Below are positions 10,345 through 45,327 of a stretch of DNA of 64,000 bases, piece by piece. Both the position numbers and the translations under genes were made by a program. The stretch's first letter is position 1, and each line of letters begins with the position of its first letter. Origin of the DNA: Vulcanimicrobiota bacterium (GTDB lineage: Bacteria > Vulcanimicrobiota > Vulcanimicrobiia > Vulcanimicrobiales > Vulcanimicrobiaceae); NCBI GenBank assembly GCA_963757945.1, contig CAVWTN010000002.1:458262-522261 (forward strand), given 5' to 3'. A model generated the notes under the pieces. The model saw only the letters and a program-made list of their open reading frames with translations. It searched no databases and had not been told where the DNA came from.

Positions 10345-10404
10345 CCGGTATGCGCCGCGAGGGCCGCGAGGTTACGCTCGCGGAGGTGCGCAACTGAGCC
10401 GGAT

Positions 10405-11265
<861 letters not shown>

Positions 11266-11285
11266 CCTGGCGCCCTTCGACGGGC

Positions 11286-11642
11286 TCAGGACGAGGGGGC
11301 CGAAATGCAGGCCGCGATCAGCGCGCGGATGGTCTCGAGTTCGCCGCTCGTGATGTGAGACGGCGTCTCGGTCAGGCGCGAGTGAGGAACCGTTTGGACG
11401 TTCCAAGCGAGCGCGTAGCACGGCTTCGTACAACCGTTCTCTGGCGTCGGCGGAATCAACAACGCGGCGCCCGCCACGGCGAGTTCAGCGGCGCCCGTCA
11501 GCGGCACGACGATCTCGAACTGCAAGGCGCCCCCGAAGAAGCTCGGCGAGCTTACGACCACAGCGGGGCGCAGCTTGTGCGGCTCCCCGGAACCCGCAAG
11601 CGCGTCGCGCCAGTTGACCGCGACGATCTGACCGGGCCTCAT
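11286..11642 (-). CDS. type II toxin, MazF/PemK-family mRNA interferase-like
   Basis: 118 aa. MRPGQIVAVNW…KLRPAVVVS matches the PemK/MazF fold signature. 4-bp ATGA overlap with the upstream small RHH gene. Confidence 0.55.
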   Translation of the reverse strand: MRPGQIVAVNWRDALAGSGEPHKLRPAVVVSSPSFFGGALQFEIVVPLTGAAELAVAGAALLIPPTPENGCTKPCYALAWNVQTVPHSRLTETPSHITSGELETIRALIAACISAPSS

Positions 11643-27550: not shown

Positions 27551-27952
27551 TCAGCCTGAGCTTGCCGAAGGGGTCGAAGGGTCTGCACCGATGTCGAGGG
27601 TGATTCGGCCGCTTCCGTTGCAGGTGCAGCAGGCGAGGCCGCTGCCGGTGGCGCGAGCGATTCCGGAGCCTCGGCAGTTCGGGCAGGCTTGGGTTCGCTT
27701 CGGCACGCTGTGAACGCCGCGTCCGCCGCAGGCGCTGCAGGTCAAGCGCTTTTGCGGCTGCACGGCGGTCCCGCGGCACTCACCGCAGCGCACGAATGGT
27801 GCGCGCACGAGAATCATGCCCTCGCCGTGGCAGATCTCGCAGCGCGAGAGCGGGGAAAGGACCCCGAATGGATCCTTTCCCGTCCCGCGGCAGAACGCGC
27901 ACGCGACCTCATGGTACGCGGAGTTCGGGGTCCGGTTAGGCTGGATTGCCAC
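27551..27952 (-). CDS. DnaJ-type zinc-finger protein (six CxxCxGxG motifs), gas-vesicle-cluster associated, paralog 1
   Basis: 133 aa with repeated CxxC(x)GxG motifs ([48 protein letters not shown]). Paralog of 29608..29985. Confidence 0.6.
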   Translation of the reverse strand: MAIQPNRTPNSAYHEVACAFCRGTGKDPFGVLSPLSRCEICHGEGMILVRAPFVRCGECRGTAVQPQKRLTCSACGGRGVHSVPKRTQACPNCRGSGIARATGSGLACCTCNGSGRITLDIGADPSTPSASSG

Positions 27953-27964
27953 GCACGACCTCCA

Positions 27965-28636
27965 CTACGCGAGTCGAACTTGTTGCGTTGCGCTATCCGC
28001 CACGAGGTAGGTCAGCTTCTCCAACTTCTCGACTTGGTCGAAGAGCGAGAGAGCCTCGTGGTAATGCCCCTCGTTTTCGAAGACGTGCCCGAGTTCAAGG
28101 AGCCGATCGAACGCCTCGCGCCCCTCGATGCTGCCGGGATAGCGCCGCAGGAGCCGCGTGTATCCGTCGATCGCGGTGTGGATCAGCCCTTGTTCGTCCC
28201 AGGCTTGCGCTGCGCGAAGCAAGGCCACTCGGCCCGATGCCGCCGCGGCCAACTTCTGCAACGTGTGCAGGAACGAGGAATGACGTTCCGCCAGCGCCGT
28301 GCGAATTTCATCGTCCGACGCATAGACGCTGAAGGTCCCCGCGGGGAGCAACGTAAGGCGCCGCTGTAACGCGTCGACGACCCGGCCGTGATCGAACGTT
28401 ATCCGCCCGAGCCACGCGTCATCCTGGGCCAGCGTGCGCACGCGCTCCTGCGAAAATTCGTCGAGCGGAACGGCGCTGACGAGTGCGGCCAACTCGCCAT
28501 ACTCGATCGCGGTGAGCGGCGCCGATCCGTTGACGCCGAACGTGTCATCGGGCAGGCGGCTCTGGGCATCGGTCTGCTTCGCGATCCCGTAAAGGTACCA
28601 CCCGTGGTCCGGGGGCAAGCGGTGTTTCGTCATCAC
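27965..28636 (-). CDS. GvpL/GvpF-family N-terminal domain fused to a TPR-like C-terminal region
   Basis: N-terminal ~135 aa aligns with the gvpL at 31578..32423 (GHAWYLYGIAK…YGELAALVSAVPLDEF…FSVYASDD). The C-terminus diverges into TPR-like helices (AWDEQGLIHTAIDGYTRLLRRYPGS…GHYHEALSLFDQV). Confidence 0.65.
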   Translation of the reverse strand: MMTKHRLPPDHGWYLYGIAKQTDAQSRLPDDTFGVNGSAPLTAIEYGELAALVSAVPLDEFSQERVRTLAQDDAWLGRITFDHGRVVDALQRRLTLLPAGTFSVYASDDEIRTALAERHSSFLHTLQKLAAAASGRVALLRAAQAWDEQGLIHTAIDGYTRLLRRYPGSIEGREAFDRLLELGHVFENEGHYHEALSLFDQVEKLEKLTYLVADSATQQVRLA

Positions 28637-29031
28637 CGGCTCCCTCCGCGTGCGACGCCGGCTCGCCTGCGCGTGTAGCTGCTCCAGATGCGCGCCGTCT
28701 CGCTGCGTCGGCCGTGGAGGCCGCCGAGCAGACCGCGAACCTGCGCCCGGTTCTGTGCCGTTTCTGCCTCGAGCAGCGTTCGCTGGCGCTGTGCCGTTGC
28801 CGCAAGCTCGCGGCCGAAACCCGCGAGCAGCGTGGCGACCGCCCGGCTACGGACGGTCACGTCCTCTCTGAGCGCCTCTCGCAGCGAGGCATCCTCGCGC
28901 AGGCGCTCGCGCCCCAGCAGCTCGAGCTTTTGCGCGATCGCCGCCCGTCTGGCTGCAATCTCTAGCGAGCGTTCATCGTGCGCCTGCTCCAACCGATCGG
29001 TCAGCGCGCGCACGTCCGCGACTATTGCCAT
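28633..29031 (-). CDS. predicted coiled-coil gas-vesicle-associated protein ('GvpX' paralog 1, family not recognised)
   Basis: 132 aa, helical and Arg/Glu/Ala-rich. The first ~100 aa are paralogous to 37420..38013 (MAIVADVRALTDRLEQ…). ATG at 29031; the ORF's upstream extension is junk. Immediately downstream of gvpA1. Confidence 0.5.
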   Translation of the reverse strand: MAIVADVRALTDRLEQAHDERSLEIAARRAAIAQKLELLGRERLREDASLREALREDVTVRSRAVATLLAGFGRELAATAQRQRTLLEAETAQNRAQVRGLLGGLHGRRSETARIWSSYTRRRAGVARGGSR

Positions 29032-29168
29032 GTCGATCTCCCGAATCATTGAAGAAAAACAGTGCGAGGGGGCGCCGGCGTCTTTGCCGCCGATCGCTAC
29101 GCACGACCGGCATGCAAGCCCCGGCGCCCTTCGCTCGAGCTCGATCGACGAGCTCTTTGCCGCTCGTG

Positions 29169-29399
29169 CTATGCGGCGGCCGCCTGCGGTGCGGCGACGG
29201 ATGCCGTGAGCCCGATCGCTTCGGCATACTTGAGGTAGGTTTCGACCGACGCGACGACGGCGCGGATTTCGATCGCGAGCAATTCGATGCCGACCAGCGA
29301 CACGCGCACCCATGCGTCGATGACGAGGCCCTTGTCCAAGATGCGATCGACGACTTCCACGAGGCTCGACGAGCCGATTGCCTTCTCTACTTGTGCCAT
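29169..29399 (-). CDS. gvpA: gas vesicle structural protein GvpA (copy 1)
   Basis: 76 aa: [64 protein letters not shown]… is the canonical GvpA core. Confidence 0.92.
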
Positions 29400-29494
29400 T
29401 CTCAGCCAAGCTCCCTGTGACGAATAGCGGCCTTGACGCATTGCCGAAGCCGCTGGTTGGGGTCCCATCGCCATCCTATCCGGCGCTCGAGAAC

Positions 29495-29543
29495 TCAACA
29501 ACACTCGATCGAGGTACTGCGGACTATCCGGACGGATACAAAT
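29495..29543 (-). promoter_or_regulatory. conserved upstream element of gvpA copy 1 (CTCGATCGAG palindrome + TATCCG-N2-CGGATA inverted repeat)
   Basis: About 48 bp nearly identical to 38510..38558 upstream of gvpA copy 2, while the flanking intergenic DNA diverges. Confidence 0.5.
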
Positions 29544-29607: not shown

Positions 29608-29985
29608 TTACGAAGCCGAACCGCTATGCAACGTCACTCTGCCGCTGCCGGTACAGGTGGAACACGACAGATCGATCTCGCTTTCCGGATCGACGCCCGT
29701 ACCTTTGCAAACCGGGCACGCTTGGTTGTTCTTCGAGACGCTCTGCACGCCGCGCCCTCCGCACGCACTGCACGTCAGACGCTTGTGCGGCTGCGCGCCG
29801 GTACCATGGCATTCGCCGCAGCGCACGAACGGCACGTGCACGATGTTCTTGCCGACGCCCTGGCACGTCTCGCAGCGCGAAAGGTCGGAAAGGAGCCCGA
29901 ACGGATCCTTACCCGTACCGCTACAGAATGCGCATTCGACGGCCTGTTCGCCTGGTTTCGGAACTGGATTAGGCATTGGCTCCAA
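29608..29985 (-). CDS. DnaJ-type zinc-finger protein (CxxCxGxG repeats), paralog 2
   Basis: 125 aa ([48 protein letters not shown]). About 50% identical to 27551..27952. Overlaps the gvpJ stop. Confidence 0.6.
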
Positions 29986-32673: not shown

Positions 32674-33477
32674 CTAGCTCTCCTTTTCCCAGGCGAGATC
32701 GACGAAATCGAACGGCGGCAGAGGCCCGACGTACTTCAGAATCAGCCGTTCGGCATTCCGCTCGGCGATCGCGTTGACGGCCGCGTCGAAGCGCGCTTCG
32801 CTTGCTTTCTCCACGAGAAACGCCGCGTTGACGATCATCATGTCCGTGAGCAGGGCGTTCGTCTTCATCTCCACGCACAGCGGTGCAAGCTCGCTCTCGA
32901 TCTCCTCGGCGTCGCGCGTGCGCAGCAGGGCCATGGCCTGCTCCACCAATTGCCCGAGCCGGATCTGCTCGAAGTGGCCCGACCCCGATACCATCTCGTC
33001 ACGCAACGAGCGGATGTCGTCCCGCGCGGCCACGATCTCGGCGAACACGCGCTCCCGTTTCCAAAGCACCTTGAGCCCGAGCTCGACTCGCCCGCGGACA
33101 TGCGCCAAGATCGCGAGCAGCTCGTCGCGCCGCGCTTCAAGAACCTGCTCGCCGACACGCGCGTCGCTCGCGGAGATCAATCCGAATTGCGCGGGGATCA
33201 CCTCGCTGAACGTGAGGATCTCTTCGAGAACGCGCTGATGCGTCAGGAGGTTCTCGCGGCTAACGTCGTAGCGAGCTGCCGGAGAGTCGCTGACGATCGC
33301 CGCGAGCTCGCCGGCCCGGACGGCGCGCACCGCGTCGCCGCGCCCGCCGACCGCGGCCGCGGCGAACGCACCGCGCCCTTCGAGCGCGGCTGCGGGAACG
33401 ATGCCGTAGACATAAACGCCGGCCGCGCCCGCGGACGTTCCCGCCTCGCTCGCGGCGAGCTTCTCGTCACTCACCAT
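32674..33477 (-). CDS. gvpF: gas vesicle protein GvpF
   Basis: 267 aa. GVYVYGIVPAAA…LAAIVSDSP… is GvpF-family. Start at ATG 33477. Confidence 0.8.
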   Translation of the reverse strand: MVSDEKLAASEAGTSAGAAGVYVYGIVPAAALEGRGAFAAAAVGGRGDAVRAVRAGELAAIVSDSPAARYDVSRENLLTHQRVLEEILTFSEVIPAQFGLISASDARVGEQVLEARRDELLAILAHVRGRVELGLKVLWKRERVFAEIVAARDDIRSLRDEMVSGSGHFEQIRLGQLVEQAMALLRTRDAEEIESELAPLCVEMKTNALLTDMMIVNAAFLVEKASEARFDAAVNAIAERNAERLILKYVGPLPPFDFVDLAWEKES

Positions 33478-35659
33478 GGGCCGCCTCTTCCGCCTGGAGG
33501 GCCGCGACGTGCGCTTCGCGCGCCTGCACGAACGCGTTCTCGAAGTGACGCCGCTCGATGACGAACGGCGTGAACGCCGCCTGGGGTTCGCGCTCGATCG
33601 ATTCGCGGATCGCGAGCATCGCCGCACGCCGGCAAAGCCCCTCGAGATCCGCGCCGACGAGGCCCTCGGTGCTCGCTGCGATGCTCTTGAGGTCCACGTC
33701 TGCACTCAACTGCCGGCCGCGCGTGTGCACGCCGAGGATCGACAGGCGCGCAGCCCGGTCCGGGGCGTGCAACGGGAGAATCACGTCGAAGCGCCCGGCG
33801 CGCAACAGCGCGGGATCGATCATGTCCGGGCGATTGGTCGCGCCGAGAATGACGACGCCGCGCAATTCCTCGATGCCGTCGAGTTCGGCGAGGAACTGCC
33901 CCACGACACGTTCCGCAACGTGCCCCCCGCCGCTCCCGTCGCCGCGGCGCGGCACGAGCGCGTCGATCTCGTCGAAGAAGACCATGCACGGCGCGGCTTG
34001 CCTGGCCTTGTGGAAGACTTCGCGGATGCCTTTCTCCGACTCGCCGACCCACTTCGAGATCAGCGCGGGCCCCTTGACCGAGATGAAATTGATGCCGCTC
34101 TCCGCCGCGGCCGCCCTCGCCACGAGCGTCTTTCCCGTTCCCGGCGGCCCGGTCAGGAGCAACCCTTTCGGTGGATTCACCTTGGCAAACGCAAAGCGGT
34201 CGGCATACGCGAGCGGCCAGGCGACCATCTCACGAATGACTTCCTTCACCTCGTCGAGCCCGCCGACGTCGTCCCACTTCACGTCCGGCAGTTCGGTGAA
34301 GACCTCGCGAATGGCCGAGGGCTCCGTCTCCGTGAGCGCATCCGTGAAGTTCCGCATCGAGATTTCGAGCTTGAGCAGCTCCTCGTAGGGAAGCTGCGGG
34401 TTCTTGAAATCGATCGTCGGGAGAGCGTTTCGCAAGCAGCTCATCGCGGCTTCGCGGCACACCCCGGCGAGATCGGCGCCGACGAAGCCATGCGTGATCG
34501 CCGCCAGCTTCTCGAGGTCCACATCCTTCGCGAGCGGCATGCCGCGCGTGTGAATCTGCAAGATCTCCAGACGCCCCACCTTGTCGGGGACGAGGACCGA
34601 GATTTCGCGATCGAAGCGCCCCGGCCGGCGCAGCGCCGGGTCGATGCTATCCGGAATGTTCGTCGCGCCGATGACGACGACGTGCCCGCGGGACTCGAGG
34701 CCGTCCATCAGGGTCAGGAGCTGCGCGACCACGCGCTTCTCGACTTCCCCTTGGACCGCTTCGCGCTTGGGCGCGATCGCGTCGATCTCGTCGATGAAGA
34801 CGATGCTCGGCGCGTGGTTCTGCGCCTCATCGAAGAGCTTGCGCAGATTTGCTTCCGACTCGCCGTAGAACTTGTGGATGATCTCCGGACCGTTGACGTG
34901 CACGAAGTGCGCGGAGGTTTCGGCTGCGACCGCTCGCGCGATCAGCGTCTTGCCGCACCCGGGCGGCCCGTAGAGCAAAACTCCCTTGGGCGGCTCGATG
35001 CCCAGACGCGCGAAGACCTCCGGGTAGCGCATCGGCAACTCGATCATCTCGCGAATCCGCGCGATCTCTCTCCCCAGGCCACCCACGTCCTCGTAGGACA
35101 CTCCCGGCGCGCGGCCTCCCAGGGTGGCATCTCCGGCGATGCGCACGACGGTGGCTCGATCGACGTAGACGGGACCGGACGGGCTCGTGTCCTTGACGAT
35201 GAAATCGACCGCCCGCGAACCGAACAGCGCGACGCGCACGCGATCGCCCACCACGAGCGGCACGTTCTCGAGCAGCGTGCCGATGTAGCGCGAATCTTGC
35301 GCGCCGAGCGCCTTGGCGGTGACGACCGGCGTGAGCGCGAGACTCGCCGCGCTGTGGTTGCCCGCCTTCTTGAGTTGCACGCTATCGTCGAGCGCCGCCT
35401 GCGCGTTCTCCCGGATGATCCCGTCGATCTGGACCAGACCCTTGCCGCGCTCGCCGGGGAACGCCGGCATGATCCGCGCCGTGGTGTTGCGTTTGCCTGC
35501 GATCTCCACGATGTCGCCGATCGCGCAACCGAGACGCTCGATATCCGCCGGATCGACGCGCGCGATCGCCCGGCCGACGTCTTTCGGAAGCGCCTCCGCA
35601 ACGCGCAGCGCGAGCGCCGCCCGCTCGCCTACCGCGCCGCTTGCTCCGGGTTGACTCAT
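33467..35659 (-). CDS. CDC48/VAT-like double-ring AAA+ ATPase (N-domain + D1 + D2) embedded in the gvp operon
   Basis: 730 aa. CDC48-type N-domain, two Walker A sites (GPPGCGKT, GPPGTGKT), two Walker B sites (IVFIDEID, MVFFDEID), and a second-region-of-homology with Arg fingers. Confidence 0.85.
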   Translation of the reverse strand: MSQPGASGAVGERAALALRVAEALPKDVGRAIARVDPADIERLGCAIGDIVEIAGKRNTTARIMPAFPGERGKGLVQIDGIIRENAQAALDDSVQLKKAGNHSAASLALTPVVTAKALGAQDSRYIGTLLENVPLVVGDRVRVALFGSRAVDFIVKDTSPSGPVYVDRATVVRIAGDATLGGRAPGVSYEDVGGLGREIARIREMIELPMRYPEVFARLGIEPPKGVLLYGPPGCGKTLIARAVAAETSAHFVHVNGPEIIHKFYGESEANLRKLFDEAQNHAPSIVFIDEIDAIAPKREAVQGEVEKRVVAQLLTLMDGLESRGHVVVIGATNIPDSIDPALRRPGRFDREISVLVPDKVGRLEILQIHTRGMPLAKDVDLEKLAAITHGFVGADLAGVCREAAMSCLRNALPTIDFKNPQLPYEELLKLEISMRNFTDALTETEPSAIREVFTELPDVKWDDVGGLDEVKEVIREMVAWPLAYADRFAFAKVNPPKGLLLTGPPGTGKTLVARAAAAESGINFISVKGPALISKWVGESEKGIREVFHKARQAAPCMVFFDEIDALVPRRGDGSGGGHVAERVVGQFLAELDGIEELRGVVILGATNRPDMIDPALLRAGRFDVILPLHAPDRAARLSILGVHTRGRQLSADVDLKSIAASTEGLVGADLEGLCRRAAMLAIRESIEREPQAAFTPFVIERRHFENAFVQAREAHVAALQAEEAAHGE

Positions 35660-36156
35660 TTCTTCTTCTCGAGGCGAACCTCGAGAATGGCATTCTTAAA
35701 GCTTCGCTGCAGGTTCGACGCATCGACCTGCGCCGGCAACAGGAGTTCCTTGGAGTATTTCCGTTCGCGACCGGCGGCCTCGAGCGTCAGGATGTCGCCC
35801 TCAACTTCGACCTTGATGTCTTCGTCCGTGACGCCCGGCAGCTCCGCCACGACCAAGACATGATCGGCTTCGTCGAAAATGTCGACGAGCGGCTCGCGCA
35901 CCTCGGAAACTTCGGGCCCGTGTGCCGTGGGGCGGATGTTGCCGAACTGCTCGATGACCGGAACGCCGCCGAGCGACTTGATCGACACGCCGTAGAGGCC
36001 GCGCAATTCACGCGGACCGCTCAGCTCGCCGCTGCGCCGGATTTCCTTGCCCTCGCCGAGCTCACCGAGCAGATCGATGAAACCGCCCAGCCCTTTGAGG
36101 ATCTCGCCGAGCCCGAGATCCGTGCGCGGATCGCTTGTCTTCCGTTTGCTGCTCAT
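35656..36156 (-). CDS. gvpH: Hsp20/alpha-crystallin family protein (GvpH-like)
   Basis: 166 aa with an alpha-crystallin domain (ADHVLVVAELPGVTDEDIKVEVEGDILTLEAAG). ATGA overlap with the CDC48-like gene. Confidence 0.75.
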   Translation of the reverse strand: MSSKRKTSDPRTDLGLGEILKGLGGFIDLLGELGEGKEIRRSGELSGPRELRGLYGVSIKSLGGVPVIEQFGNIRPTAHGPEVSEVREPLVDIFDEADHVLVVAELPGVTDEDIKVEVEGDILTLEAAGRERKYSKELLLPAQVDASNLQRSFKNAILEVRLEKKK

Positions 36157-36159
36157 CTT

Positions 36160-36459
36160 CTAGTACTCCAACGTCAGCGCATGGCGGTCACTCGCGGCAG
36201 GCGGGGCTTCGATGCCGCCGGCGATCGGGCGCGCGATCGGCCGTGATTCGAGGTCGGCGATCTGCCCGTCGACCTCGCGCAAACGCGCCTCGACGGTTTG
36301 CTGTCTTTTCCGCGCGAGCTCGACTTCGCGCACGAGCCGCCGGCGTTCGCCCGCCAGCCGCTGGAGTTGCAATGCACGGCTCACTTCGCTGCGCAACCCG
36401 ATCGACGGGGGCAGCCCGCGAAACGACCGCACGTCGTGCATGGTGCTAGGTTGCCCCAT
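36160..36459 (-). CDS. small predicted coiled-coil protein in the gvp operon (unknown)
   Basis: 99-aa ORF tightly packed between gvpN (2-nt gap) and the Hsp20 gene, with RBS GGAG. Helical Arg/Glu-rich composition. It could be spurious in this high-GC DNA. Confidence 0.4.
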   Translation of the reverse strand: MGQPSTMHDVRSFRGLPPSIGLRSEVSRALQLQRLAGERRRLVREVELARKRQQTVEARLREVDGQIADLESRPIARPIAGGIEAPPAASDRHALTLEY

Positions 36460-36461
36460 GG

Positions 36462-37391
36462 TTACTTCCGCCTTTTCGGACTGCCGGTTTCCCGGATGCG
36501 CCGCCGCGACTTTTCAGATCGATCGGAGCCGCCGCTGACGAGCACATCAGCGCACGTCTGCTCGAACGCCGGCTCTCCGGGAACCGCGCGTCCACCGGAG
36601 ATCGACAAGACCTTGGCGATCATGATGGAGCGGCGCAGCGTGGACCCTACGTGGCCGGACTCATCCCTCCAGTGATGCACGACGTCGACGATCCGTTCGG
36701 CATCCTCGAGGGGAACGCCGGACTTCGCTCGAGTGATCTCGATCTCCGTATCGCGATCGAAGCCGCTCATGTCGATCGTGATCATCCGGTCGAGCAGTGC
36801 ATCCTGCGCGCCGTGCACGCCCACGTACTCGTCGGGATTCGACGTGAAGATCGCGGAGAACGCGGGGTGAACCTTCAGATACTGCACGCCGTTCCTGCTC
36901 GTGGGCAACATGAGCAGCTTCTCTTCCAACACGGCGAGCAGGACGTTGTTCGCCTCCGCGCGCGAGCGCGAGAACTCGTCGTAAAGCAGCGTCAGCCCTT
37001 CGCGGCAGGCGACCGTCAAACGATTGTCGACCCACTGTTGCGTCACGTCCTCCTCGGTCTTGAGGACCGAGTGGACGAAGTTGTCGACGACCCTGCGGCG
37101 GCGATAGCCGGATCGCCCGCCGACAAGGTCCGATGTGCCGAACTCGTCGTCACCGCACAGCAACGCCAGCGGCCGGCCCAGGTGATGCGCGACGTGCAGC
37201 GCCAAGGTCGTTTTGCCCGAGCCGGACGGTCCGCGGAAATGCACCGGATAGCCGGCCCGGATATACGTGAGGGCCCGTGCGGTCAGGGCCCGGATGAAGT
37301 CGGTCTCAACGAAATCCGCGCGTGGCCGGCTCGTGATGACCGAACTCCCTCCGACCGCAGGCGCGCTACCGTTCAACGTGACGCTCGCCAA
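36462..37391 (-). CDS. gvpN: gas vesicle protein GvpN (MoxR-like AAA+ ATPase)
   Basis: Walker A HFRGPSGSGKTTLA, Walker B LLYDEFSR. TTG start at 37391 preceded by AGGAGG at 5-nt spacing. Confidence 0.85.
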   Translation of the reverse strand: MASVTLNGSAPAVGGSSVITSRPRADFVETDFIRALTARALTYIRAGYPVHFRGPSGSGKTTLALHVAHHLGRPLALLCGDDEFGTSDLVGGRSGYRRRRVVDNFVHSVLKTEEDVTQQWVDNRLTVACREGLTLLYDEFSRSRAEANNVLLAVLEEKLLMLPTSRNGVQYLKVHPAFSAIFTSNPDEYVGVHGAQDALLDRMITIDMSGFDRDTEIEITRAKSGVPLEDAERIVDVVHHWRDESGHVGSTLRRSIMIAKVLSISGGRAVPGEPAFEQTCADVLVSGGSDRSEKSRRRIRETGSPKRRK

Positions 37392-37419
37392 GGCGCCCTC
37401 CTCTTCTTATCGAGTGCGA

Positions 37420-38013
37420 TCAAGTTGCAAAGTAAATTTCGCGAACGTCGTCCTTACGGGCGCGGTTCTGCTCGATGAGTCCATCGATCGCATGACCGAC
37501 TCCCGCGCGCGATGCGTGGAAGTGACGCTCGATGTCGTGGATCTTCACGCCGTTTGGATGGCCGGCGAGGAACGTGAAGACCTTGTCCTGCAGAGCGGTT
37601 GAATGATGCTGGACGCTTGGTTTGGGGCCATCTTGCGTCACCGCTCTGAAGGCGTAGTAATTGCCCCAGATCCCGGCCGTCTCCACGCGATTGACGTGGA
37701 AGGCGTCAAGGAGCCGGCTGACCTGTGCCCGGTTCTCCGCCGCGTCGGCCTTGAGCTGCGCGTTCTGCTTCTTCGCCGTCGCAGCAAGCTCCCGATCGAA
37801 ACCGGCAAGCTGATCGGCGACCGACCGGCTACGGGCGACGACCTCGGTATGGAGCGCCGCTCGCAGCTCCGTCTGTTCTTGAGTCCGCTCGCGTTGGAAG
37901 CGCGAAAGCTTCTGCGAAATCGCCTGTCGTCTCGCCGCGATCTCTTGGAACCGCTCTTCGTGCGATTGCTCCAACCGATCCGTCAGTGCGCGCACGTCTG
38001 CAACTATTGCCAT
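37420..38013 (-). CDS. predicted coiled-coil gas-vesicle-associated protein ('GvpX' paralog 2) with extra C-terminal winged-helix-like domain
   Basis: 198 aa. The N-terminal ~110 aa are paralogous to 28633..29031 (MAIVADVRALTDRLEQSHEER…). C-terminal ~70 aa extension (…VFTFLAGHPNGVKIHDIERHFHASRAGVGHAIDGLIEQN…). RBS GGGGGAGA. Confidence 0.5.
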   Translation of the reverse strand: MAIVADVRALTDRLEQSHEERFQEIAARRQAISQKLSRFQRERTQEQTELRAALHTEVVARSRSVADQLAGFDRELAATAKKQNAQLKADAAENRAQVSRLLDAFHVNRVETAGIWGNYYAFRAVTQDGPKPSVQHHSTALQDKVFTFLAGHPNGVKIHDIERHFHASRAGVGHAIDGLIEQNRARKDDVREIYFAT

Positions 38014-38151
38014 CTGGATCTCCCCCGCTTGTTGCGGCGTTGCGAGAGGGGCGCCGGCGGCCTTCACGCTGCTCTCTGGGCGCGAGCAGCGTGTAGACCC
38101 CAGCGCCCTCCCTCAAGCTCGATATAGTCGAGCCTATCTCTACCGCTCGCG

Positions 38152-38382
38152 CTACGCGGCGACGGGCTGGGGTGCTGCGACCGATGCCGTAAGCCCGATC
38201 GCTTCGGCATACTTGAGATACGTCTCGACCGAGGCCACGACGGCGCGGATCTCGATAGCGAGCAACTCGATGCCGACGAGCGACACGCGCACCCATGCAT
38301 CGATGACAAGGCCCTTGTCCAGGATACGATCGACGACTTCCACGAGGCTCGATGAGCCGATTGCCTTCTCTACTTGTGCCAT
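38152..38382 (-). CDS. gvpA: gas vesicle structural protein GvpA (copy 2)
   Basis: 76 aa. Identical to copy 1 except for 2 C-terminal residues (…APQPVAA vs …APQAAAA); DNA about 88% identical, mostly synonymous changes. Confidence 0.92.
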
Positions 38383-38478
38383 TATTTAACGAAGCTCCCT
38401 GTGACAAATGGCGGCCAAGACACACTGCCGAGGCCACTGCTTGGGATTCGAGAAACCATGAACATCAGGTTTCCCTCC

Positions 38479-38558
38479 CTACGATGCATCGTAGTCGTAC
38501 GGCAGCGGCACAACAACACTCGATCGAGGTAGCGCGAGCTATCCGAACGGATACAATC
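38479..38558 (-). promoter_or_regulatory. gvpA copy-2 upstream region: 16-bp perfect palindrome CTACGATGCATCGTAG (38479..38494) plus conserved CTCGATCGAG / TATCCG-N2-CGGATA element (38510..38558)
   Basis: The conserved element is shared with 29495..29543. The 16-bp palindrome is unique to copy 2. It lies between the RR stop and gvpA2. Confidence 0.5.
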
Positions 38559-38564
38559 ATGCCG

Positions 38565-39221
38565 TCACTCCACCATTCCGACGCGCATCGCGAGGACCGC
38601 GACGTGCGTGCGATCGCGCGCGGCGAATTTTCCGATGATGCTCTGAACGTGCTTCTTGACGGTCACTTCAGCAAGACCGAGCTCGTCGCCGATGGCGCGA
38701 TTCGTCTTTCCGTCGACCAAAAGATCGAGCACCATTCGCTCGCGCTCGGTGAGATCGATCCCGGCCTTCTTCGCGGCGTTCGCCGGCGCCAGCGCCTCGT
38801 CCGCAAGCGCGCGCCGGATGACCGCATCTCTCACGACGATGTTGCCTTGACTGACTGCGGTGACGGTATGATACAAGAGATCGCGCGAGCAATCTTTGAG
38901 CAAATAGCCTGCCGCCCCGGCACACACCGCGCTCGTCACGAACGCATCGTCGCCGTAGCTGCTCATCATGATGACGGCGGTATCCCCGAAGGCTTCCTTG
39001 ATGCGACGCGCCGCATCCAAGCCGCCCATGCCCGGCATGCGCACGTCCATCAACACGACGTTCGGCCGCAGCCGTTCCACGCTCGCGATCGCGCTCTTTC
39101 CATCCTCCGCCTCGCCGACGACCTCGATCGCAGGATACGTCTCGAGCATGGCCCGCACGCCCTCGCGAACGACGAGATGGTCATCGACCAGCAGGACGGA
39201 GATGCGCGGCGTTGCGCTCAT
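38565..39221 (-). CDS. LuxR/NarL-family response regulator (REC + HTH)
   Basis: 219 aa. Receiver domain LLVDDH…VVLMDVRMPGMGG; C-terminal LuxR HTH (LTERERMVLDLLVDGKTNRAIGDELGLAEVTVKKH). Start at ATG 39221. Confidence 0.85.
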   Translation of the reverse strand: MSATPRISVLLVDDHLVVREGVRAMLETYPAIEVVGEAEDGKSAIASVERLRPNVVLMDVRMPGMGGLDAARRIKEAFGDTAVIMMSSYGDDAFVTSAVCAGAAGYLLKDCSRDLLYHTVTAVSQGNIVVRDAVIRRALADEALAPANAAKKAGIDLTERERMVLDLLVDGKTNRAIGDELGLAEVTVKKHVQSIIGKFAARDRTHVAVLAMRVGMVE

Positions 39222-39988
39222 CGCAAATGCTCCCGGGATTCGCTCGCCACGAACGAAGGCGCGCCGAGCGCGAGCGACGCCGGGACGATCACGGTCGTCG
39301 CGGTGCCCTTGCCTGGGGCGCTTTCCACGGTCAACGTGCCGTCGAGGAGTTCCGCACGCTTGGTCATGCTCAGCACGCCGAAATGCCGCGGTGCACGCTC
39401 TCCGATCAGCGTGGCGACATCGAAACCGGCGCCGTCGTCGAGCACGGTCCATTGGATCGTATCGCCTACGCGACGGAGCGTGGCCACGATCCGCGATGCA
39501 TTTGCATGTTTGACGACGTTTGTAATCGCCTCGTGAACGATGCGATAGAGCGCCGTCTCCACTTCCTTGGGAAAGTGCAGCGGAGCGAGTTCGTAATGAA
39601 CCGCCAGACCGTGGCTCTCGCGCAGCTCGTCCAGTTCGTGCTGGATTGTCGACACGAGCCCGACGTCGTCGAGCGCCGCCGGCCGCAGGCAGGCGACGAC
39701 CTCTCTGGCCTCCTGAAGTGCCTTGCGAACGCAACTCCCGGCACGATTCACGCTCGCCCGAACGTCGTCCGGCAAATTCGATCGTGCAACCACGACTTGA
39801 AGCTGCTGGAAGGCCGCGGTCAGCGTTTGCGTGAGACCATCGTGGATGTCCAAGCAAATTCGCTCGCGCTCCCGTTCCTGCGCCTCAAGCGTCTTCTGCA
39901 ACAGATAACGAACGCGTTGCTCCTGCTCTTGCAAAGCAGTGCGCAAGCCTGCGTCGTCGGCCTTCCTCTGCGCACTTATCTCAGACAT
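39218..39988 (-). CDS. sensor histidine kinase, HisKA_3 + HATPase_c, no TM or recognisable sensor domain
   Basis: 256 aa. H-box LDIHDGLTQTL about 45 aa from the N-terminus; ATPase motifs (ITNVVKHANA, DDGAGF, GLLSM). 4-bp overlap with the RR gene. Confidence 0.8.
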   Translation of the reverse strand: MSEISAQRKADDAGLRTALQEQEQRVRYLLQKTLEAQERERERICLDIHDGLTQTLTAAFQQLQVVVARSNLPDDVRASVNRAGSCVRKALQEAREVVACLRPAALDDVGLVSTIQHELDELRESHGLAVHYELAPLHFPKEVETALYRIVHEAITNVVKHANASRIVATLRRVGDTIQWTVLDDGAGFDVATLIGERAPRHFGVLSMTKRAELLDGTLTVESAPGKGTATTVIVPASLALGAPSFVASESREHLR

Positions 39989-40543
39989 ACGGGGCGAGCC
40001 TCGGAATCGCCCCGAATCTTAAGCCCGTTAATGATTCGGGCGTGGTGCACTGCCTGGCCTGATGGAACGTCGACATAGGCATTGCCGAACTCGGTACGGT
40101 GATCGTACTGAACTCGGCGGAAGTCCTTACCAGCAACGAGCATCGACATGCACATTTCAGCCTATTACTCGTTTTGCCCCGGAATGTGCACGGCAAACCC
40201 GCTTGTATGCGGCCTTCCCCGCCTGCGCCGCGACGCGCGTACGGCGGCACGCGACGTGCGCGCGGAATCCGTGCGCGAGCGCGGTGCTATTGCGGTGCGC
40301 GGCGAGAAAGCCACCAGCAGCAACCCTTGCGAATGAAGTGATCGGAAACGGCGGACGCCGATTCGTGTCTGGGAATCACCATGATACCAAACGGCGTTGA
40401 AAATACAGTCCCATGTATGGGGGATAATCCGGCGACCAGACGCGCAGTCACGCGAACGCCGCGGGTTCGGCTAGCCGTACTCGAGCAAAGATACGTGCGG
40501 TGCGCGTGCTGCTTGGGGAGCTATCCGAGCGCAGCCAAGTGCT
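39989..40543. other. 555-bp non-coding region with locally lower GC, upstream of the HK-RR-gvp genes
   Basis: No protein-like ORF on either strand. GC drops to roughly 50-55% around 40100-40450. Stem-loop GGGGCGA-9nt-TCGCCCC at 39990..40012. Confidence 0.4.
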
Positions 40544-43084
40544 TTATTTCGTCCGGCCTGCTAGCGCGACATATGGCGCCGCATCCGGCGCCGCCGTGAA
40601 GAAGTCGCGTAAGTCGGCGGCCAGCGCATCGCCGAGCGAGAGCGGCGGCAGCCCGAGCAGCTCCTCCTCCGTCTTCAGGACGCTCGCCGTGGAGAGATGA
40701 CGGCCGCCGAGGTAGTGCGGCTTCGCATACGGCGAGATGACGAGCGCGTAGCTTCTGTGCGCGTGAACGTGATCGCGCGAATTCTCCGCATCGTCGGGCA
40801 TGACGAAGATCGCGGTCTCCTTCCATTGCGGAAGATGCGTGAGAAACTCGACGATGCTCCCGAGCGCGGCGTCGCCGTCTTTGACTTGCTCGGCGAGAGA
40901 GGGCAGTCCGGGCGCGGCGGCACCGCGATCGCCCGGCAGCCAGATCTGCGTGAAGGCGGGGAAGCCGTTGGATGCGACCAGCTGCGAGAAGTCGGAGACG
41001 AACTCTTGCGCGCGCCGCGTATCGCGGATCGATGGGCTCCAGCCGGGATAGTCGAGGTCGATGCGCCCGGCGAGCGCCGCAAGCGCGGGGACGTCGAGCG
41101 AATAGACGCCGCCTAGCCCGGGTGCTTGCACGCTCGCTCCCGCGACGCTGCCCGTCGACGCGGTATACCCCGAGAGCCGCACGAGGTCGCCGTAATCGCG
41201 ATAGCTCAGGCGCTTACGCGCGAGCGCATCGAAGATGTAGCCGGCTCGCGGATAGTCCTCGGGATCTTGGCTGCTCGTAAACGGCAGGCGGCCGCGCTCG
41301 ATTCGCAGCGTTCGCTCGCTGAACGCCGTCGCGAGCCCCCCCGCGGCGAACTGGTGCGCCCCGTTCGATTCCTCAGCGTCCGCGTAAAAATTCGTAGCCA
41401 GCCCATACGTGCGGGCCAGCGCATGCAGATTCGGCGTGACGGATTCATCGAACGCCGTGAACGTGCGCTCGCCGTTGCCCCACGGTTTGCCCGCTGCATC
41501 CGTGAGATCGCCGAGCATCGCATCGTAGCTCTTGCTCTCTTCGAGAATCAACACGACGTGCTTGATCGCATGGCTCGCCTCGCCGGAAAAACCCTGCGGC
41601 ACGATCGGGTTCGCCGTCGCCCTGCGCGCGATGCGCACGTACGTCAGTGCCCGGCGCGTCACCCGGCCGAGATCCAGCGTGCCCAATTCGATCTTCTGCA
41701 GCGTCGCCCAGACCGCGCTGCTGTCCCCGGTGAATCCGGGTTCGTGATCCAGTCCCTTCGCGTTGGCGACGAGCAGCGTCGTATCGTTCGCGGTGAGCGC
41801 GAGCGCGCTCGGAGACCAGCCCGTGGGGATCAGGCCGATACGATGCGGCCGCACCGGATCGCGCACGTCGAGCACGGCGACGGCGTTCAGCCCCGCTAGC
41901 GCGACGTAGAGCCGCCGCTGGTCGGCGCCCAGCGCGAGCGCAACCGGCTGCGTGCCGTAGGGCGCGCGGTCGAACAATCGCAGCTCGGTCCCACCGACGA
42001 CGCGCGCGCGGCCCTTATCAAACCCCACCACCGCGATGCGATCGACGTTCGTCATCGTGACGAAGGCGTGCCGACCGTCGCGCGTGGCGACGACCGCGGT
42101 GGGATGCGCGCCGCCGATCGTCGCACGGCCGTCGGGCGGCCGATCCATCTCGAGAGCGTACGCGCGGCGCCCGTCGGGGATCCCCCCCGTCCCGAGCGGA
42201 ATGACGGAGAGCGAGGAGGATCGCCCGCGATCGATCCGCGCGCCGCGGAACTCGGGCGCTCCGAGCGCCGCCGGGAGCGCGCGATAGGCCGCGAGCCCCT
42301 CGTTCGAAACGAGCAGCCGCTCTCCGGCACGCGCTGCGCCGAAGGGGAAGTATCCGACGGGAATCACTGGGCCGGCGAGCGCGCGCGTCGCCGTGTCGAT
42401 CGTCGCAACGGTGTTCGCCATGTTGTTTATGACGTAGATCCGCGCGCCGTTCTGCGAGGGGACGAGCGTCCCGGGGAACGCGCGGCCGGCGGTCGCGAGG
42501 CGTGCATCCGCGGCGGGCGGCATCGGGATCATCGCGGCGATCGGATCGGGCGCCAGCCGCCCCGCCGCGTCCAGATCGAATGCGAGGACCGCATCGTTCG
42601 CGCCGCCGCTCGCGAAGACGAGCGTCCGGCCGCGATCGAGCGGGTCGGCGACCGCCACGATCCCGGCGAAGAACGTCGCATCGGGCGCGCGGTACTGGTC
42701 GACGAGCCGCATCGATGCGACGTCGACGACCGCGAGCGAATACCCGCCGTGGACGCGCGGATCGAGCGTGCTGATCGCGCCGCTTTGCCGGTCGTCGCAG
42801 TTCGCGACGATCGCATAGCGCCCGTCCGGGGTCAGCGCGAGACCCAGCGCGTTCGTCCCGACGAGCGTGCTGGTGCCTTCGGGAATGACCAAGCGCCCGG
42901 AGGGCAGGATCTGCGAGAACGGATCGGCTGGATCGAGCACGCCGGCCGGGCGGGTTCCCGCCGGCGGCTCGAAGGTAAGGAGCGCAACGGGCCGCGCCGT
43001 GGGGCGAGGCTGCGGATGCGCGCCGAGCAAGCTGACCGCAGCGACAAGCGCGGCCAAGAGGCGGAGTCTCACGTCATCCCGCAT
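40544..43084 (-). CDS. secreted fusion protein: YVTN-type beta-propeller repeats + C-terminal phosphoesterase-family (PLC/acid-phosphatase-like) domain
   Basis: 846 aa. Signal peptide. The N-terminal ~480 aa carry repeated beta-propeller YVTN/lactonase-like units. The C-terminus has phosphoesterase-family motifs (HVVLILEESKSYD…, …PDDAENSRDHVHAHRS). Confidence 0.65.
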   Translation of the reverse strand: MRDDVRLRLLAALVAAVSLLGAHPQPRPTARPVALLTFEPPAGTRPAGVLDPADPFSQILPSGRLVIPEGTSTLVGTNALGLALTPDGRYAIVANCDDRQSGAISTLDPRVHGGYSLAVVDVASMRLVDQYRAPDATFFAGIVAVADPLDRGRTLVFASGGANDAVLAFDLDAAGRLAPDPIAAMIPMPPAADARLATAGRAFPGTLVPSQNGARIYVINNMANTVATIDTATRALAGPVIPVGYFPFGAARAGERLLVSNEGLAAYRALPAALGAPEFRGARIDRGRSSSLSVIPLGTGGIPDGRRAYALEMDRPPDGRATIGGAHPTAVVATRDGRHAFVTMTNVDRIAVVGFDKGRARVVGGTELRLFDRAPYGTQPVALALGADQRRLYVALAGLNAVAVLDVRDPVRPHRIGLIPTGWSPSALALTANDTTLLVANAKGLDHEPGFTGDSSAVWATLQKIELGTLDLGRVTRRALTYVRIARRATANPIVPQGFSGEASHAIKHVVLILEESKSYDAMLGDLTDAAGKPWGNGERTFTAFDESVTPNLHALARTYGLATNFYADAEESNGAHQFAAGGLATAFSERTLRIERGRLPFTSSQDPEDYPRAGYIFDALARKRLSYRDYGDLVRLSGYTASTGSVAGASVQAPGLGGVYSLDVPALAALAGRIDLDYPGWSPSIRDTRRAQEFVSDFSQLVASNGFPAFTQIWLPGDRGAAAPGLPSLAEQVKDGDAALGSIVEFLTHLPQWKETAIFVMPDDAENSRDHVHAHRSYALVISPYAKPHYLGGRHLSTASVLKTEEELLGLPPLSLGDALAADLRDFFTAAPDAAPYVALAGRTK

Positions 43085-43159: not shown

Positions 43160-44632
43160 TCATCGAAGGGCGGGTGGGGCCCCGCAGCGCTCGAGCGCGC
43201 GGGAGAGTCGCGCGATCCCCTCGCGCGCGGTCGCCTCGTCCAGATCGCCGAAGGAAAGCCGCAGGGCCGCGGGGCCCGAGCGGGTCGGGTACGACGGGTC
43301 GGCCGGCATCACTAGGACCCCTTCGCGCGCGCATTCGTCGAAGGCCGCCTGCGTCGAGATGCGCGGCGGGAGGGGAAGCCACATCGTCAAGCCCGCGGCC
43401 GGGGGGCGCACGTTCGCCCACGGCAGGGCGCGCGCCAGCTCTTCGACGAACGCGTCGCGCCGGCGACGGTAGAGCGCGCGCGCCGACCGCAAGTGCTTGG
43501 GATACGCGGGCGACTCCATGAAGCGCCGCAGCGACCGCTGCATCAGCGTCGAGGTGAACGAGTCCGTGCGCTCCTTCGCCGCCGCGAAGGGCGCGTGGAG
43601 CGCGCCGCGCGCGTGGATGTAGCCGACGCGCAGCGCCGGGAAGATCGATTTCGAAAGGCTCTCGAGCACGATCGTGCGCCCGTCGACGTCGTACGCCGCG
43701 AGCGGCGCGGGGGGCTCCCCGTCGTAGGTGAAGACCCAGCCGGTCTGATCTTCGAGAATCACGACGTCGTAACGCCGCGCGAGCGCCACGATCGCCTTCG
43801 CGCGGCGCTCGGGCAAAATGCCGCCGATTGGATTCTGCGCGAACGGGTTCAGGTAGAGCAAGCGCGGACGGTACTCGGCGAAGACGCGCTCGACGTCGTC
43901 GACGCGGACGCCGTCGTCGTCGGTCGCAAGCTCGACGTAGGTCACGCCGCGCGCATCGAACGCGCCGAGCGTGGCGGCGTAGGTCGGGCTCTCGGCCGCC
44001 ACGACCGAGCGCGGTTCGAGCAGCGTCCCCGCGACGATGTCGACGGCTTGCTGCGCGCCCGAACACACGATCAGATCGTTCGCGGAAACCTCCACGCCGC
44101 GAGCGCGCAGAGCGTTTGCGAGCGTCTCGCGCAGTTGGGGATCGCCGCTCCCCGAAGCGTACTGCATCGTCTCGGGCGGATCGTCCGCCAGCGTCCGCTG
44201 GACGCAGCGCCCGAACTCCGCGAGCGGGAAGGTCTCGGGCGCCGGGTAACCGGTCGCAAGCGAGATCGTGCCCGGGCGGTTCGCCAGCTCGAGCCGGGCG
44301 AGGACGTTCTCCATTCGCGCGCGAGTGACTCCGCCGAGGTCCGGTTCCCAGCGGCGCGCCAAGGGTTCGGCGGCAACCGCGGCGCGCGCCACGAACGAGC
44401 CCTTGCCGACGCGCGTGACGATGCGGCCGCGCGCCGAGAGCGCCTCGTACGCCTGCGAAACCGTGACCAGTCCGCAGCCGAGGCTCTTCGCGAGCGAACG
44501 CATCCCGGGCAACCGGTCCCCTGCGGCGAACTCACCGCGCTCGATCTGCGCCGCGAGGCCGTCCGCAATCTGAACGTAGAGCGGGCGCTTGTCCCGTTCG
44601 TCGAGGACGATCGCGCCCGGAGGCTCGTTCAC
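43160..44632 (-). CDS. MocR/GntR-family PLP-dependent aminotransferase-like transcriptional regulator
   Basis: N-terminal GntR wHTH (PLYVQIADGLAAQIERGEF…LPGMRSLAKSLG), then a class-I aminotransferase domain with a PLP lysine motif (LSKSIFPALRVGY). GTG start at 44632 overlaps the upstream stop (GTGA). Confidence 0.8.
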   Translation of the reverse strand: MNEPPGAIVLDERDKRPLYVQIADGLAAQIERGEFAAGDRLPGMRSLAKSLGCGLVTVSQAYEALSARGRIVTRVGKGSFVARAAVAAEPLARRWEPDLGGVTRARMENVLARLELANRPGTISLATGYPAPETFPLAEFGRCVQRTLADDPPETMQYASGSGDPQLRETLANALRARGVEVSANDLIVCSGAQQAVDIVAGTLLEPRSVVAAESPTYAATLGAFDARGVTYVELATDDDGVRVDDVERVFAEYRPRLLYLNPFAQNPIGGILPERRAKAIVALARRYDVVILEDQTGWVFTYDGEPPAPLAAYDVDGRTIVLESLSKSIFPALRVGYIHARGALHAPFAAAKERTDSFTSTLMQRSLRRFMESPAYPKHLRSARALYRRRRDAFVEELARALPWANVRPPAAGLTMWLPLPPRISTQAAFDECAREGVLVMPADPSYPTRSGPAALRLSFGDLDEATAREGIARLSRALERCGAPPALR

Positions 44633-45327
44633 GCGGCGTCGAGCCGGTACCCGATGCCGCGAACCGAGGATATCTGCACGATCGAGCCCACCTCGGAGAG
44701 CTTCTTGCGCAACGCGGCGACGTGCACGTCGACGACGCGCGTCGGCACGCCCGAGACGTCGTTCCAGACGCGCTCGAGGATCTGCGCGCGCGTCAGCAAC
44801 CTGCCTTCGGCCTCCGCCAAGAACCACAGCAAACGGAATTCGAGCGCCGTCAGGCTGGTGGTCCGTTCGCCTCGTTCGAGCACGTGCAGATCGCGCAGCA
44901 GGCGCGCGTCGCCGATGCCGAGCGTCGCGCCGTTTGCGTTCGCGCGAGCCCGATCGCGGCGCCGCAAGAACGCGCCGATGCGAGCGATCAGCTCGCTCGG
45001 TAGAAAGGGCTTGGTGATGTAGTCGTCGGCCCCGAGACCGAGGCCCCGCAGCTTGAACTCTTCCTCCGCGTGACCGCTCACGAGCAAGATGTACGCATCG
45101 GCGCTCTCAGCGATCGCCGTGCACACGTCGAGCCCCGACATATCGGGCAAGCCGATATCCAACAGCACGACGTCCGGGTGATATTTCGTCATCAGCTGCA
45201 AGCCGGCCGAGCCGTTCGACGCGATGCGCGCATCGTAGCCGGCCTTCGCCAAAACGAGCTGCTCGAAGCGCGCCGTGTCGGCGTCATCTTCGACGATCAG
45301 CACCCGGGCCGCCGAGCTGTCGATCAT
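44629..45327 (-). CDS. OmpR/PhoB-family response regulator
   Basis: REC domain (LIVEDD…VVLLDIGLPDMSG) plus winged-helix trans_reg_C (LTALEFRLLWFLAEAEGRLLTRAQIL…GIGYRL). No cognate kinase adjacent. Confidence 0.85.
   Translation of the reverse strand: MIDSSAARVLIVEDDADTARFEQLVLAKAGYDARIASNGSAGLQLMTKYHPDVVLLDIGLPDMSGLDVCTAIAESADAYILLVSGHAEEEFKLRGLGLGADDYITKPFLPSELIARIGAFLRRRDRARANANGATLGIGDARLLRDLHVLERGERTTSLTALEFRLLWFLAEAEGRLLTRAQILERVWNDVSGVPTRVVDVHVAALRKKLSEVGSIVQISSVRGIGYRLDAA

Follow-up and report, generated by a model that had tools for sequence, protein, structure and literature searches.

How is a gas vesicle cluster controlled if the histidine kinase encoded just upstream of it carries no recognizable sensor? 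This question is raised by a locus of a Vulcanimicrobiota bacterium, from which we analyzed a 64-kb stretch of contig CAVWTN010000002.1, hereafter called the window. Within it, the genes for a histidine kinase (HK) and a LuxR-type response regulator (RR) immediately precede gvpA, the first gene of a gas vesicle (gvp) cluster. We describe the anatomy of the pair, the truncation of its kinase, the purifying selection acting on it, its synteny with gvp genes in other lineages, and the conservation of a palindromic motif, P1, ahead of gvpA; from these observations, we infer binding of RR to P1, a positive rather than a negative effect on gvpA, and where the signal comes from. On balance, we lean with modest confidence toward a model in which this cluster-linked, NarL-type two-component system would control gvpA transcription, with RR activating through P1. 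Coordinates of genes and motifs are positions in the window and refer to the minus strand unless another locus or strand is named.

An intact HisKA_3 kinase without an input domain

The HK gene (39218-39988) begins with ATG, is the maximal open reading frame (ORF) in its frame, and encodes 256 amino acids that comprise an N-terminal helix, a HisKA_3 dimerization and histidine phosphotransfer (DHp) domain, and a HATPase_c domain. Pfam places HisKA_3 (PF07730) at residues 40 to 106 (46.1 bits against a cutoff of 24) and HATPase_c (PF02518) at residues 143 to 237 (49.5 bits against a cutoff of 26.4), and it detects no further domain, with nothing before residue 40. Matches in NCBIfam are solely to the C-terminal transmitter halves of MctS, LiaS, UhpB, NarQ, and NarX. 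No transmembrane segment was found by hydropathy: the top 19-residue Kyte-Doolittle mean is 1.57 and falls in the last beta-strand. These coordinates, domain assignments, and hydropathy values agree with the preliminary description of the locus, which had reported a 256-residue protein made of HisKA_3 and ATPase domains alone, devoid of transmembrane, PAS, GAF, or other input domains.

An AlphaFold2 model of HK built from 72 homologs (mean predicted local distance difference test score of 87.9) folds residues 2 to 67 into a single unbroken helix, followed by a canonical catalytic and ATP-binding domain that superimposes on VraS with a root mean square deviation of 2.1 Å. Residues 1 to 39 prolong helix alpha-1 of the DHp domain, which bears His49, and this coiled-coil or signaling helix (codons 1 to 39; 39872-39988) is all that remains before the H-box. 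The closest solved structures are the VraS catalytic domain and the DesK cytoplasmic fragment, with VraS ranking first by both sequence and fold. The H-box ICLDIHDGLTQ (39827-39859; residues 44 to 54) holds the phospho-acceptor His49, Cys45, and DxxxQ, which is the phosphatase motif of HisKA_3 kinases. Both class signatures, the H-D-x-x-x-Q motif of the DHp domain and the GHKL N, G1, and G2 boxes, are present, and residues H49, D50, Q54, N157, D184, G186, G188, and G204 are invariant in the 72-sequence alignment. Cys45 lies one helical turn ahead of His49 and is likewise invariant across the clade, GAF-bearing members included; one may speculate that it serves as a redox handle. By every sequence feature tested, HK is an ordinary member of the HisKA_3 family; having no input module, it is not what is commonly meant by a sensor kinase.

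We looked for a sensor or partner that might be hidden at the locus. An in-frame stop lies 11 codons 5' of the HK ATG, with no ATG, GTG, or TTG between them. The N termini of about 100 homologs, compared by tblastn with positions 39900-40650, returned only noise for a GAF or PAS relic in the 556-bp gap upstream of HK, and across the 64-kb window, the GAF/PAS regions matched only the linker and DHp domain of HK itself. A hidden or decayed sensor was rejected on this basis; an upstream start that would uncover a sensor, for which the preliminary description had left room, is excluded by the in-frame stop and the lack of any GAF/PAS relic. No conserved partner gene or small ORF adjoining HK was found. 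A small partner ORF upstream of HK was rejected, as the one weak match among the stop-to-stop segments of six lineages reflects conservation at the DNA level, and so was a 59-amino-acid ORF overlapping the HK start, which is not conserved and sits in an indel-rich region. Neither the long leader of HK nor that of gvpA gave a meaningful match to a known RNA element in Rfam. A functional link to the secreted phosphoesterase encoded upstream was also rejected, that neighbor being replaced in the related loci L006, L008, and L009.

Where, then, could a signal enter? The preliminary description admitted only two sources, a partner protein or regulation of the kinase's own expression. The absence of a sensor stands, and the exclusivity does not: this statement is too narrow because the coiled coil retained by HK is the kinase/phosphatase switch element in DesK. 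In that protein, the phosphatase state has the coiled coil before the phospho-His folded, the kinase/phosphotransfer state has it broken, and the sensor works by altering the coil (PMC5231405). Intrinsic sensing by the DHp domain, a phosphatase-only function, or phosphorylation of RR by other kinases may therefore apply as well.

Origin and maintenance of the truncated kinase

The seven nearest homologs of HK (50 to 80% identity) are all 243 to 260 amino acids long. Beyond them, matches are mainly GAF- or PAS-containing proteins of 370 to 450 amino acids, most of which come from Chloroflexota metagenome-assembled genomes (MAGs). The nearest outgroup consists of GAF-HisKA_3 kinases of approximately 420 to 450 amino acids from Chloroflexota MAGs, and 4 of its approximately 7 lineages also adjoin gvpA. 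In the alignment, HK begins within the last helix or linker of the GAF region of the long forms, and a GAF module of about 200 amino acids is absent; the HK segment DDAGLRTALQEQEQRVRYLLQKT aligns with ENARLHQDLRDREQQVSFLLKAT in the GAF-DHp linker helix of the 420- to 450-amino-acid orthologs. A neighbor-joining tree of the catalytic cores, crude as it is, unites the short kinases in one clade, with a sister group of GAF/PAS kinases that includes gvp-linked ones. HK probably derives from the GAF-HisKA_3 kinases that adjoin gvpA in Chloroflexota, the GAF module having been lost in one old event. A few other complete short forms are scattered among the 120 listed homologs (for example, P0045, P0055, P0058, and P0072), so sensor-less HisKA_3 kinases are, as judged from these sequences, uncommon but not unique. 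A metagenome scan for further close relatives yielded matches of at most 48% identity, none of them in a gvp-linked locus.

The short kinase has been kept under constraint. The ratio of nonsynonymous to synonymous substitution rates (dN/dS) for HK is 0.12 to 0.16 against four closer relatives and 0.28 against the most distant, L008, with synonymous sites saturated. For the codons of the N-terminal helix, the ratio is about 0.06 against L003 and L009, a constraint at least equal to that on the rest of the gene. By these measures, the truncation is evolutionary and maintained, and the gene is not decaying; HK is an intact, selectively maintained HisKA_3 enzyme that carries kinase and phosphatase motifs. 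Autophosphorylation, phosphotransfer, and phosphatase activity are predicted, with the purifying selection as indirect support. Its surroundings differ in composition from the rest of the window. Overall G+C content is at its minimum (0.62 to 0.64 versus 0.65 to 0.72 elsewhere) at positions 36000-40000, which span the two-component genes and the proximal gvp cluster, and the G+C content at third codon positions is 0.72 to 0.80 for the genes in this interval versus mostly 0.83 to 0.92 for genes outside the cluster. Such values would fit a module acquired in its entirety from another lineage.

A NarL-type response regulator coupled to the kinase

The RR gene (38565-39221) encodes 218 amino acids with a receiver (REC) domain and a GerE/LuxR helix-turn-helix of the NarL family (Response_reg PF00072 at residues 9 to 120, 96.1 bits; GerE PF00196 at residues 157 to 211, 55.5 bits against a cutoff of 23.5). 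Its start codon is the ATG within a 4-bp ATGA overlap with the HK stop. The mechanical ORF in this frame extends to 39857, and all relatives start at the ATG of the overlap. The overlap is read directly from the sequence, as the preliminary description had it, and the same is true of the shared orientation of HK, RR, and gvpA, all on the minus strand. Residues D13/D14, D59, S87, and K109 of RR (the acidic pocket, the phospho-Asp, and the S/T and K positions) are conserved across orthologs, as is the recognition helix AEVTVKKHVQ. RR matches the structures of VraR, NarL (1a04), and DevR over its full length, and DesR (4ldz) is also among the matches; the best family models are NarL and MctR, both at 153 bits and below the equivalog cutoffs. 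By its REC and GerE domains, RR is a NarL/FixJ-family regulator, for which phosphorylation-dependent operator binding is predicted.

Five loci of the short clade retain the ATGA overlap (the window, L001, L003/L005, L009, and L006), and L008 is without it. This translational coupling bears on an alternative in which HK would be a signal-blind remnant, acting as a phosphatase or buffer or standing nearly idle, and RR would receive its phosphate from another, sensor-bearing HisKA_3 kinase or from acetyl phosphate. The missing input domain and the intact DxxxQ motif would suit such a role, a folded coiled coil before the His is the phosphatase state in DesK, and the Chloroflexota locus L092, with two GAF kinases near one RR, provides a precedent for multiple kinases. 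However, the ATP-binding motifs (N157, DxGxG, and G204) and His49 are invariant at a dN/dS of 0.12 to 0.16, which argues against a phosphatase-only HK because such a protein could lose ATP binding, and the overlap with RR has been preserved in the five loci. We regard the remnant as unlikely.

Upstream of the operon, a conserved block (40146-40205; about 160 to 215 nt 5' of the HK start) is likely its promoter or regulatory region, a function suggested by the alignment. No P1 palindrome was found in this block or upstream of any HK. The sequence TCGGATAGCTC at 40518-40528, just past the phosphoesterase stop and about 530 nt 5' of HK, reproduces an exact P1 half-site context; autoregulation through it was rejected, as it is absent in relatives and probably arose by chance. 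A hairpin, GGGGCGA-TTCCGAGGC-TCGCCCC (39991-40013), lies directly 5' of the HK start with a GAGG ribosome-binding site in its loop, and L003 has GGGGAC...GTCCCC at the same position, which suggests compensatory change.

Linkage of the two-component genes to the gvp cluster

RR ends 182 bp from gvpA copy a (38152-38382), which encodes 76 amino acids (GvpA NF006874, 124 bits) and opens a full gvp cluster that extends along this strand as far as about 27.5 kb. It includes gvpN, hsp20/gvpH, a CDC48-type AAA ATPase gene, three gvpF/L genes, gvpJ/S-like genes, gvpK, genes for DnaJ-type zinc-finger proteins, and copy b of gvpA (29169-29399), whose 76-residue product departs from that of copy a in the last residues only.

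The order HK-RR-gvpA is found in L001, L003, L005, L009, and L008, that is, in every locus of the short clade that is long enough, with the L008 contig stopping 24 codons into gvpA. The gene upstream of HK varies: the window, L001, and L003 have a phosphoesterase gene at this place, and L006, L008, and L009 have other genes. The conserved unit is thus HK-RR-gvp rather than a wider neighborhood. In L010, L092, L093, and L094, a GAF-bearing HK and an orthologous RR (51 to 57% identical) adjoin a gvpA-led cluster in the same gene order. The recurrence of the order in five independent short-kinase relatives and in four Chloroflexota lineages indicates that the arrangement is not due to chance. Across the orthologous systems compared, linkage to gvp is frequent and not obligatory.

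L092 has an unusual layout. Two paralogous GAF-HisKA_3 kinase genes (3655-5043 and 10001-11344 of that locus) flank a single divergent orthologous RR gene and two ParA-like genes, which suggests multi-kinase input in the ancestral arrangement.

The two gvpA copies belong to a segmental duplication within the cluster (28675-29541 versus 37657-38556, about 8.98 kb apart). The duplication takes in the promoter module, gvpA (at 90% DNA identity), and a 5' portion of the gene that follows. That gene, orf215 (37420-38067; probable true start at Met19, 38013), has a second copy of about 134 amino acids that ends near 28640 without the C-terminal domain. The orf215 protein combines a coiled coil with a winged-helix-like C terminus (weak matches to MarR_2 at an E value of 0.0066 and RPA_C at 0.077) and has 6 homologs only among 5.8 billion proteins; its last 55 or so residues are conserved in proteins of 345 to 450 amino acids encoded at the same position in the gvp clusters of L092 to L094. 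Possible roles are those of a GvpC-like shell protein and of a second regulator.

A candidate operator at both gvpA promoters

P1 has the form TATCCG-NN-CGGATA and lies about 30 bp 5' of the -35 hexamer at each gvpA copy, as P1a (TATCCGTTCGGATA; 38540-38553) and P1b (TATCCGTCCGGATA; 29525-29538). P1a, the proposed site of an RR dimer, would be centered approximately 65 bp 5' of the transcription start of gvpA copy a, which is predicted from the sequence near 38481. A search for TATCCNNNNGGATA with one mismatch allowed produced 2 matches in the 64 kb, both at gvpA promoters, and the regions upstream of the two copies are 83 to 89% identical over conserved blocks. When five lineages are aligned, 13 of the 15 positions of TATCCGTTCGGATAG do not vary, against a mean of 66% identity for the RR-gvpA intergenic region, of which P1 is the most conserved block. 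High-affinity NarL sites are inverted repeats with a 2-bp spacer (7-2-7 geometry). P1 resembles them in this geometry, which is typical of GerE-family dimers. The 46-nt conserved element that contains it, common to the regions upstream of both gvpA copies, starts at 38556, 8 nt after the RR stop, which corrects the distance of 7 bp given earlier, and the core palindrome starts 11 nt past that stop. P1 was rejected as an intrinsic terminator of the HK-RR operon: its stem is 5 bp, no T-run follows, and no terminator-like site was seen.

Closer to gvpA copy a, a second palindrome, P2a (CTCGATCGAG; 38519-38528), abuts the -35 hexamer with its center near -42. The promoter itself (38488-38516; TTGTTG, 17 bp, TACGAT) appears weak and sigma-70-like. 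P2b (CTCGATCGAG) and the promoter of copy b (29473-29513; -35 TTGTTG, 17 bp, -10 TAGGAT) repeat this arrangement at identical spacing, and the same hexamers and spacing recur in relatives (with TAGGAT), L093, and L090. A sigma-54 promoter was rejected: no TGGCAC-N5-TTGC-like match lies upstream of either gvpA, and the total in the window is at chance level. The leader of each copy (38392-38445 and 29408-29461) holds a conserved hairpin, GCGGCC...GGCCGC, whose outer CCC pairs with the GGG of the AGGGAG ribosome-binding site; this pairing would sequester part of the site. Covariation in the hairpin is weak, with one compensatory pair in six sequences.

This layout allows two opposite outputs. 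RR might repress gvpA, acting perhaps as a roadblock or through a loop that joins P1 to P2, with phosphorylation either relieving or imposing repression; NarL-family regulators are capable of both modes, and P2 abuts the -35 hexamer, so its occupancy would occlude RNA polymerase. The deduced position of P1, by contrast, is clear of the polymerase footprint, and the weak -35 hexamer TTGTTG is typical of activator-dependent promoters. Both features point to activation, and repression seems quite unlikely to us.

A further question is whether P1 belongs to RR at all. HK-RR might be a mere syntenic neighbor with its regulon elsewhere, and P1 and P2 might be bound by another factor, such as the orf215 protein with its winged-helix-like C terminus. 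Orthologous systems without gvp exist, orf215 has the weak winged-helix matches and the C terminus conserved in Chloroflexota gvp clusters, and P2 is a palindrome without an assigned ligand, all of which would accord with this view. Yet in L090/L091, the most informative case, P1 and the same promoter module are found downstream of the orthologous RR, ahead of a Peptidase_M73 gene, and these loci contain no gvp gene and no orf215 homolog. P1 thus travels with RR and not with gvpA, because these loci keep it where gvpA is missing. The inverted-repeat geometry of P1, the conservation of the RR recognition helix together with the motif, and a synteny that outlasts changes of the upstream neighbor also speak against a bystander, which we consider very unlikely. 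In the Chloroflexota clusters, ATCC-N4-GGAT is present 171 to 185 bp 5' of the gvpA start codon in L010 and L092.

Several observations weigh against control of gvpA by RR through P1. Orthologs at 45 to 52% identity in L090/L091, L098/L099, and L011 are not beside gvp genes. Of the gvp-linked loci, L093 has a degenerate P1 and L094 has none, and the count of the short ATCC-N4-GGAT across all fetched loci is near chance, its position alone being nonrandom. The two P1 copies in the window stem from the segmental duplication and hence are not independent, and the promoter, read together with its start site from the sequence, scores under the 9-of-12 threshold of the scan tool. The search for P1 covered the 64-kb window, and further P1 sites and other kinases may exist elsewhere in the genome. 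Finally, orf215 could be a second DNA-binding player.

A model for control of gvpA

With these points set against the evidence above, the HK-RR pair is a credible candidate for a buoyancy switch of an ordinary regulator type. The preliminary description had gone further in calling it a strong candidate for a dedicated buoyancy regulator: synteny and the palindrome at both gvpA copies lend comparative support to such a putative role. In the model that we favor, RR phosphorylated on Asp59 would dimerize on P1 and, from a center near -65, would most likely activate the weak TTGTTG promoter. Activation would drive the gvpA-led operon as well as the internal second gvpA unit.

Probably, the output would not depend on a ligand-binding domain within HK itself but on some other determinant. 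Our first preference for the input is the amount of HK and RR made from the conserved upstream region of their operon (40146-40205), which is free of the palindrome. Second, some protein or physical variable may act on the free coiled coil. Our third preference is that HK would be mainly a phosphatase, with another kinase feeding RR. A more specific form of the second, which we consider highly improbable, is that the orphaned N-terminal coiled coil is a docking site for a gas vesicle protein, such that the kinase/phosphatase balance would report the assembly state or free shell protein. Docking candidates may include the fast-evolving coiled-coil protein encoded directly after each gvpA copy. 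If docking were true, a minimal kinase would provide an assembly checkpoint in place of the ancestral, ligand-binding GAF input.

The locus may be of use beyond its own regulation. The 14-bp candidate operator and promoter module could be reused to switch acoustic-reporter gvp clusters. GAF-bearing and truncated kinases acting on the same regulator and promoter would form a clean system for the role of a kinase after sensor loss. Nothing in the current understanding of two-component signaling is overturned.

Other features of the window

Several neighboring genes deserve mention. The gvp cluster encodes two paralogous DnaJ-type CXXCXGXG zinc-finger proteins (29608-29985 and 27551-27952; 72% identical DNA over 300 nt); Chloroflexota clusters carry a GvpF/L-DnaJ fusion instead of these separate proteins. 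A full-length CDC48-family double-AAA ATPase (33467-35659; TIGR01243, 909 bits) is encoded after hsp20/gvpH, in addition to GvpN. Its placement is conserved in Chloroflexota gvp clusters, and its gene is called as several fragments in L001. At the distal end of the cluster, the N-terminal half of GvpF/L is fused to TPR repeats (27965-28636), forming an unusual accessory protein.

Outside the cluster, an OmpR-type response regulator gene without an adjacent kinase (44629-45327) overlaps the end of a malic enzyme gene and occupies the same position in L001. A NifD/NifE-like protein (57950-59416, plus strand), whose best NCBIfam matches fall well short of the respective cutoffs, may be a nitrogenase-like enzyme.

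Comparison with known systems

Among characterized two-component systems, DesK-DesR of Bacillus subtilis offers the closest parallel in architecture. Both kinases have a HisKA_3 DHp domain with H-D-x-x-x-Q, a coiled-coil helix before the His, and a REC-GerE partner, and DesK is among the best sequence and fold matches to HK in solved structures (E value of about 1e-10). HK corresponds almost exactly to the crystallized cytoplasmic fragment DesKC. The two differ in that five transmembrane helices of DesK sense the state of the membrane, whereas HK has nothing N-terminal to the coiled coil, and in their target genes.

The GAF-HisKA_3 kinases and LuxR-type regulators beside gvpA in Chloroflexota (P0009, P0011, P0016, and L010) are nearer by descent, with 43 to 49% identity in the kinase core and a shared ICL(D/E)IHDG H-box. 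Their RR proteins, 51 to 57% identical to that of the window, share its recognition helix, P1-like sites occur in 2 of the 4, and the gvp order is the same (gvpA, a variable gene, gvpN, a small ORF, hsp20, cdc48, and gvpF/L). In contrast to HK, these kinases retain the GAF module of about 200 amino acids, and the RR gene is sometimes divergent or parted from gvpA by a small gene.

Two further systems share families with HK and RR and differ in input and operator. RR is closest to the NarL models and structure 1a04, and P1 has the 2-bp-spacer inverted repeat of NarX/NarQ-NarL targets. The half-site is TATCCG here and TACYYMT there, however, and the window system has no periplasmic or HAMP sensor and no link to nitrate. 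DevS/DosT-DevR has the same kinase and regulator families; DosT and DevR are among the solved-structure matches, and GAF-containing mycobacterial kinases are 37 to 38% identical to HK. DevS and DosT carry tandem heme-binding GAF domains and DevR recognizes another operator, whereas HK has no GAF domain.

Descriptions of gas vesicle regulators encoded within the cluster have so far been confined to GvpD/GvpE in haloarchaea and GvrA/GvrB/GvrC in Serratia and other Proteobacteria (PMC4982088, PMC9501494). GvrA, GvrB, and GvrC of Serratia sp. ATCC 39006 are encoded in the gas vesicle locus and are required for gvpA1 transcription (PMC4982088). GvrA differs from RR: it is a sigma-54 activator of the NtrC type, and gvpA1 has a sigma-54 promoter, whereas RR lacks an AAA+/Sigma54_activat domain. 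GvpD and GvpE are dedicated regulators within the haloarchaeal gvp cluster (PMC9501494). They are unrelated proteins, a bZIP-like activator (GvpE) and an NTPase repressor (GvpD), and they involve no phosphotransfer; Pfam scans of the main cluster ORFs in the window found neither family. Full-text searches of the literature turned up neither an account of a HisKA_3/NarL pair at gvp clusters nor an experimental study of the Chloroflexota members. Set beside these systems, it is plausible from sequence comparison that HK-RR represents a third family of dedicated gas vesicle regulators, with a naturally fixed loss of the sensor. Such a third type would be sigma-70/NarL based and would operate in uncultivated, high-GC soil or freshwater lineages and in Chloroflexota.

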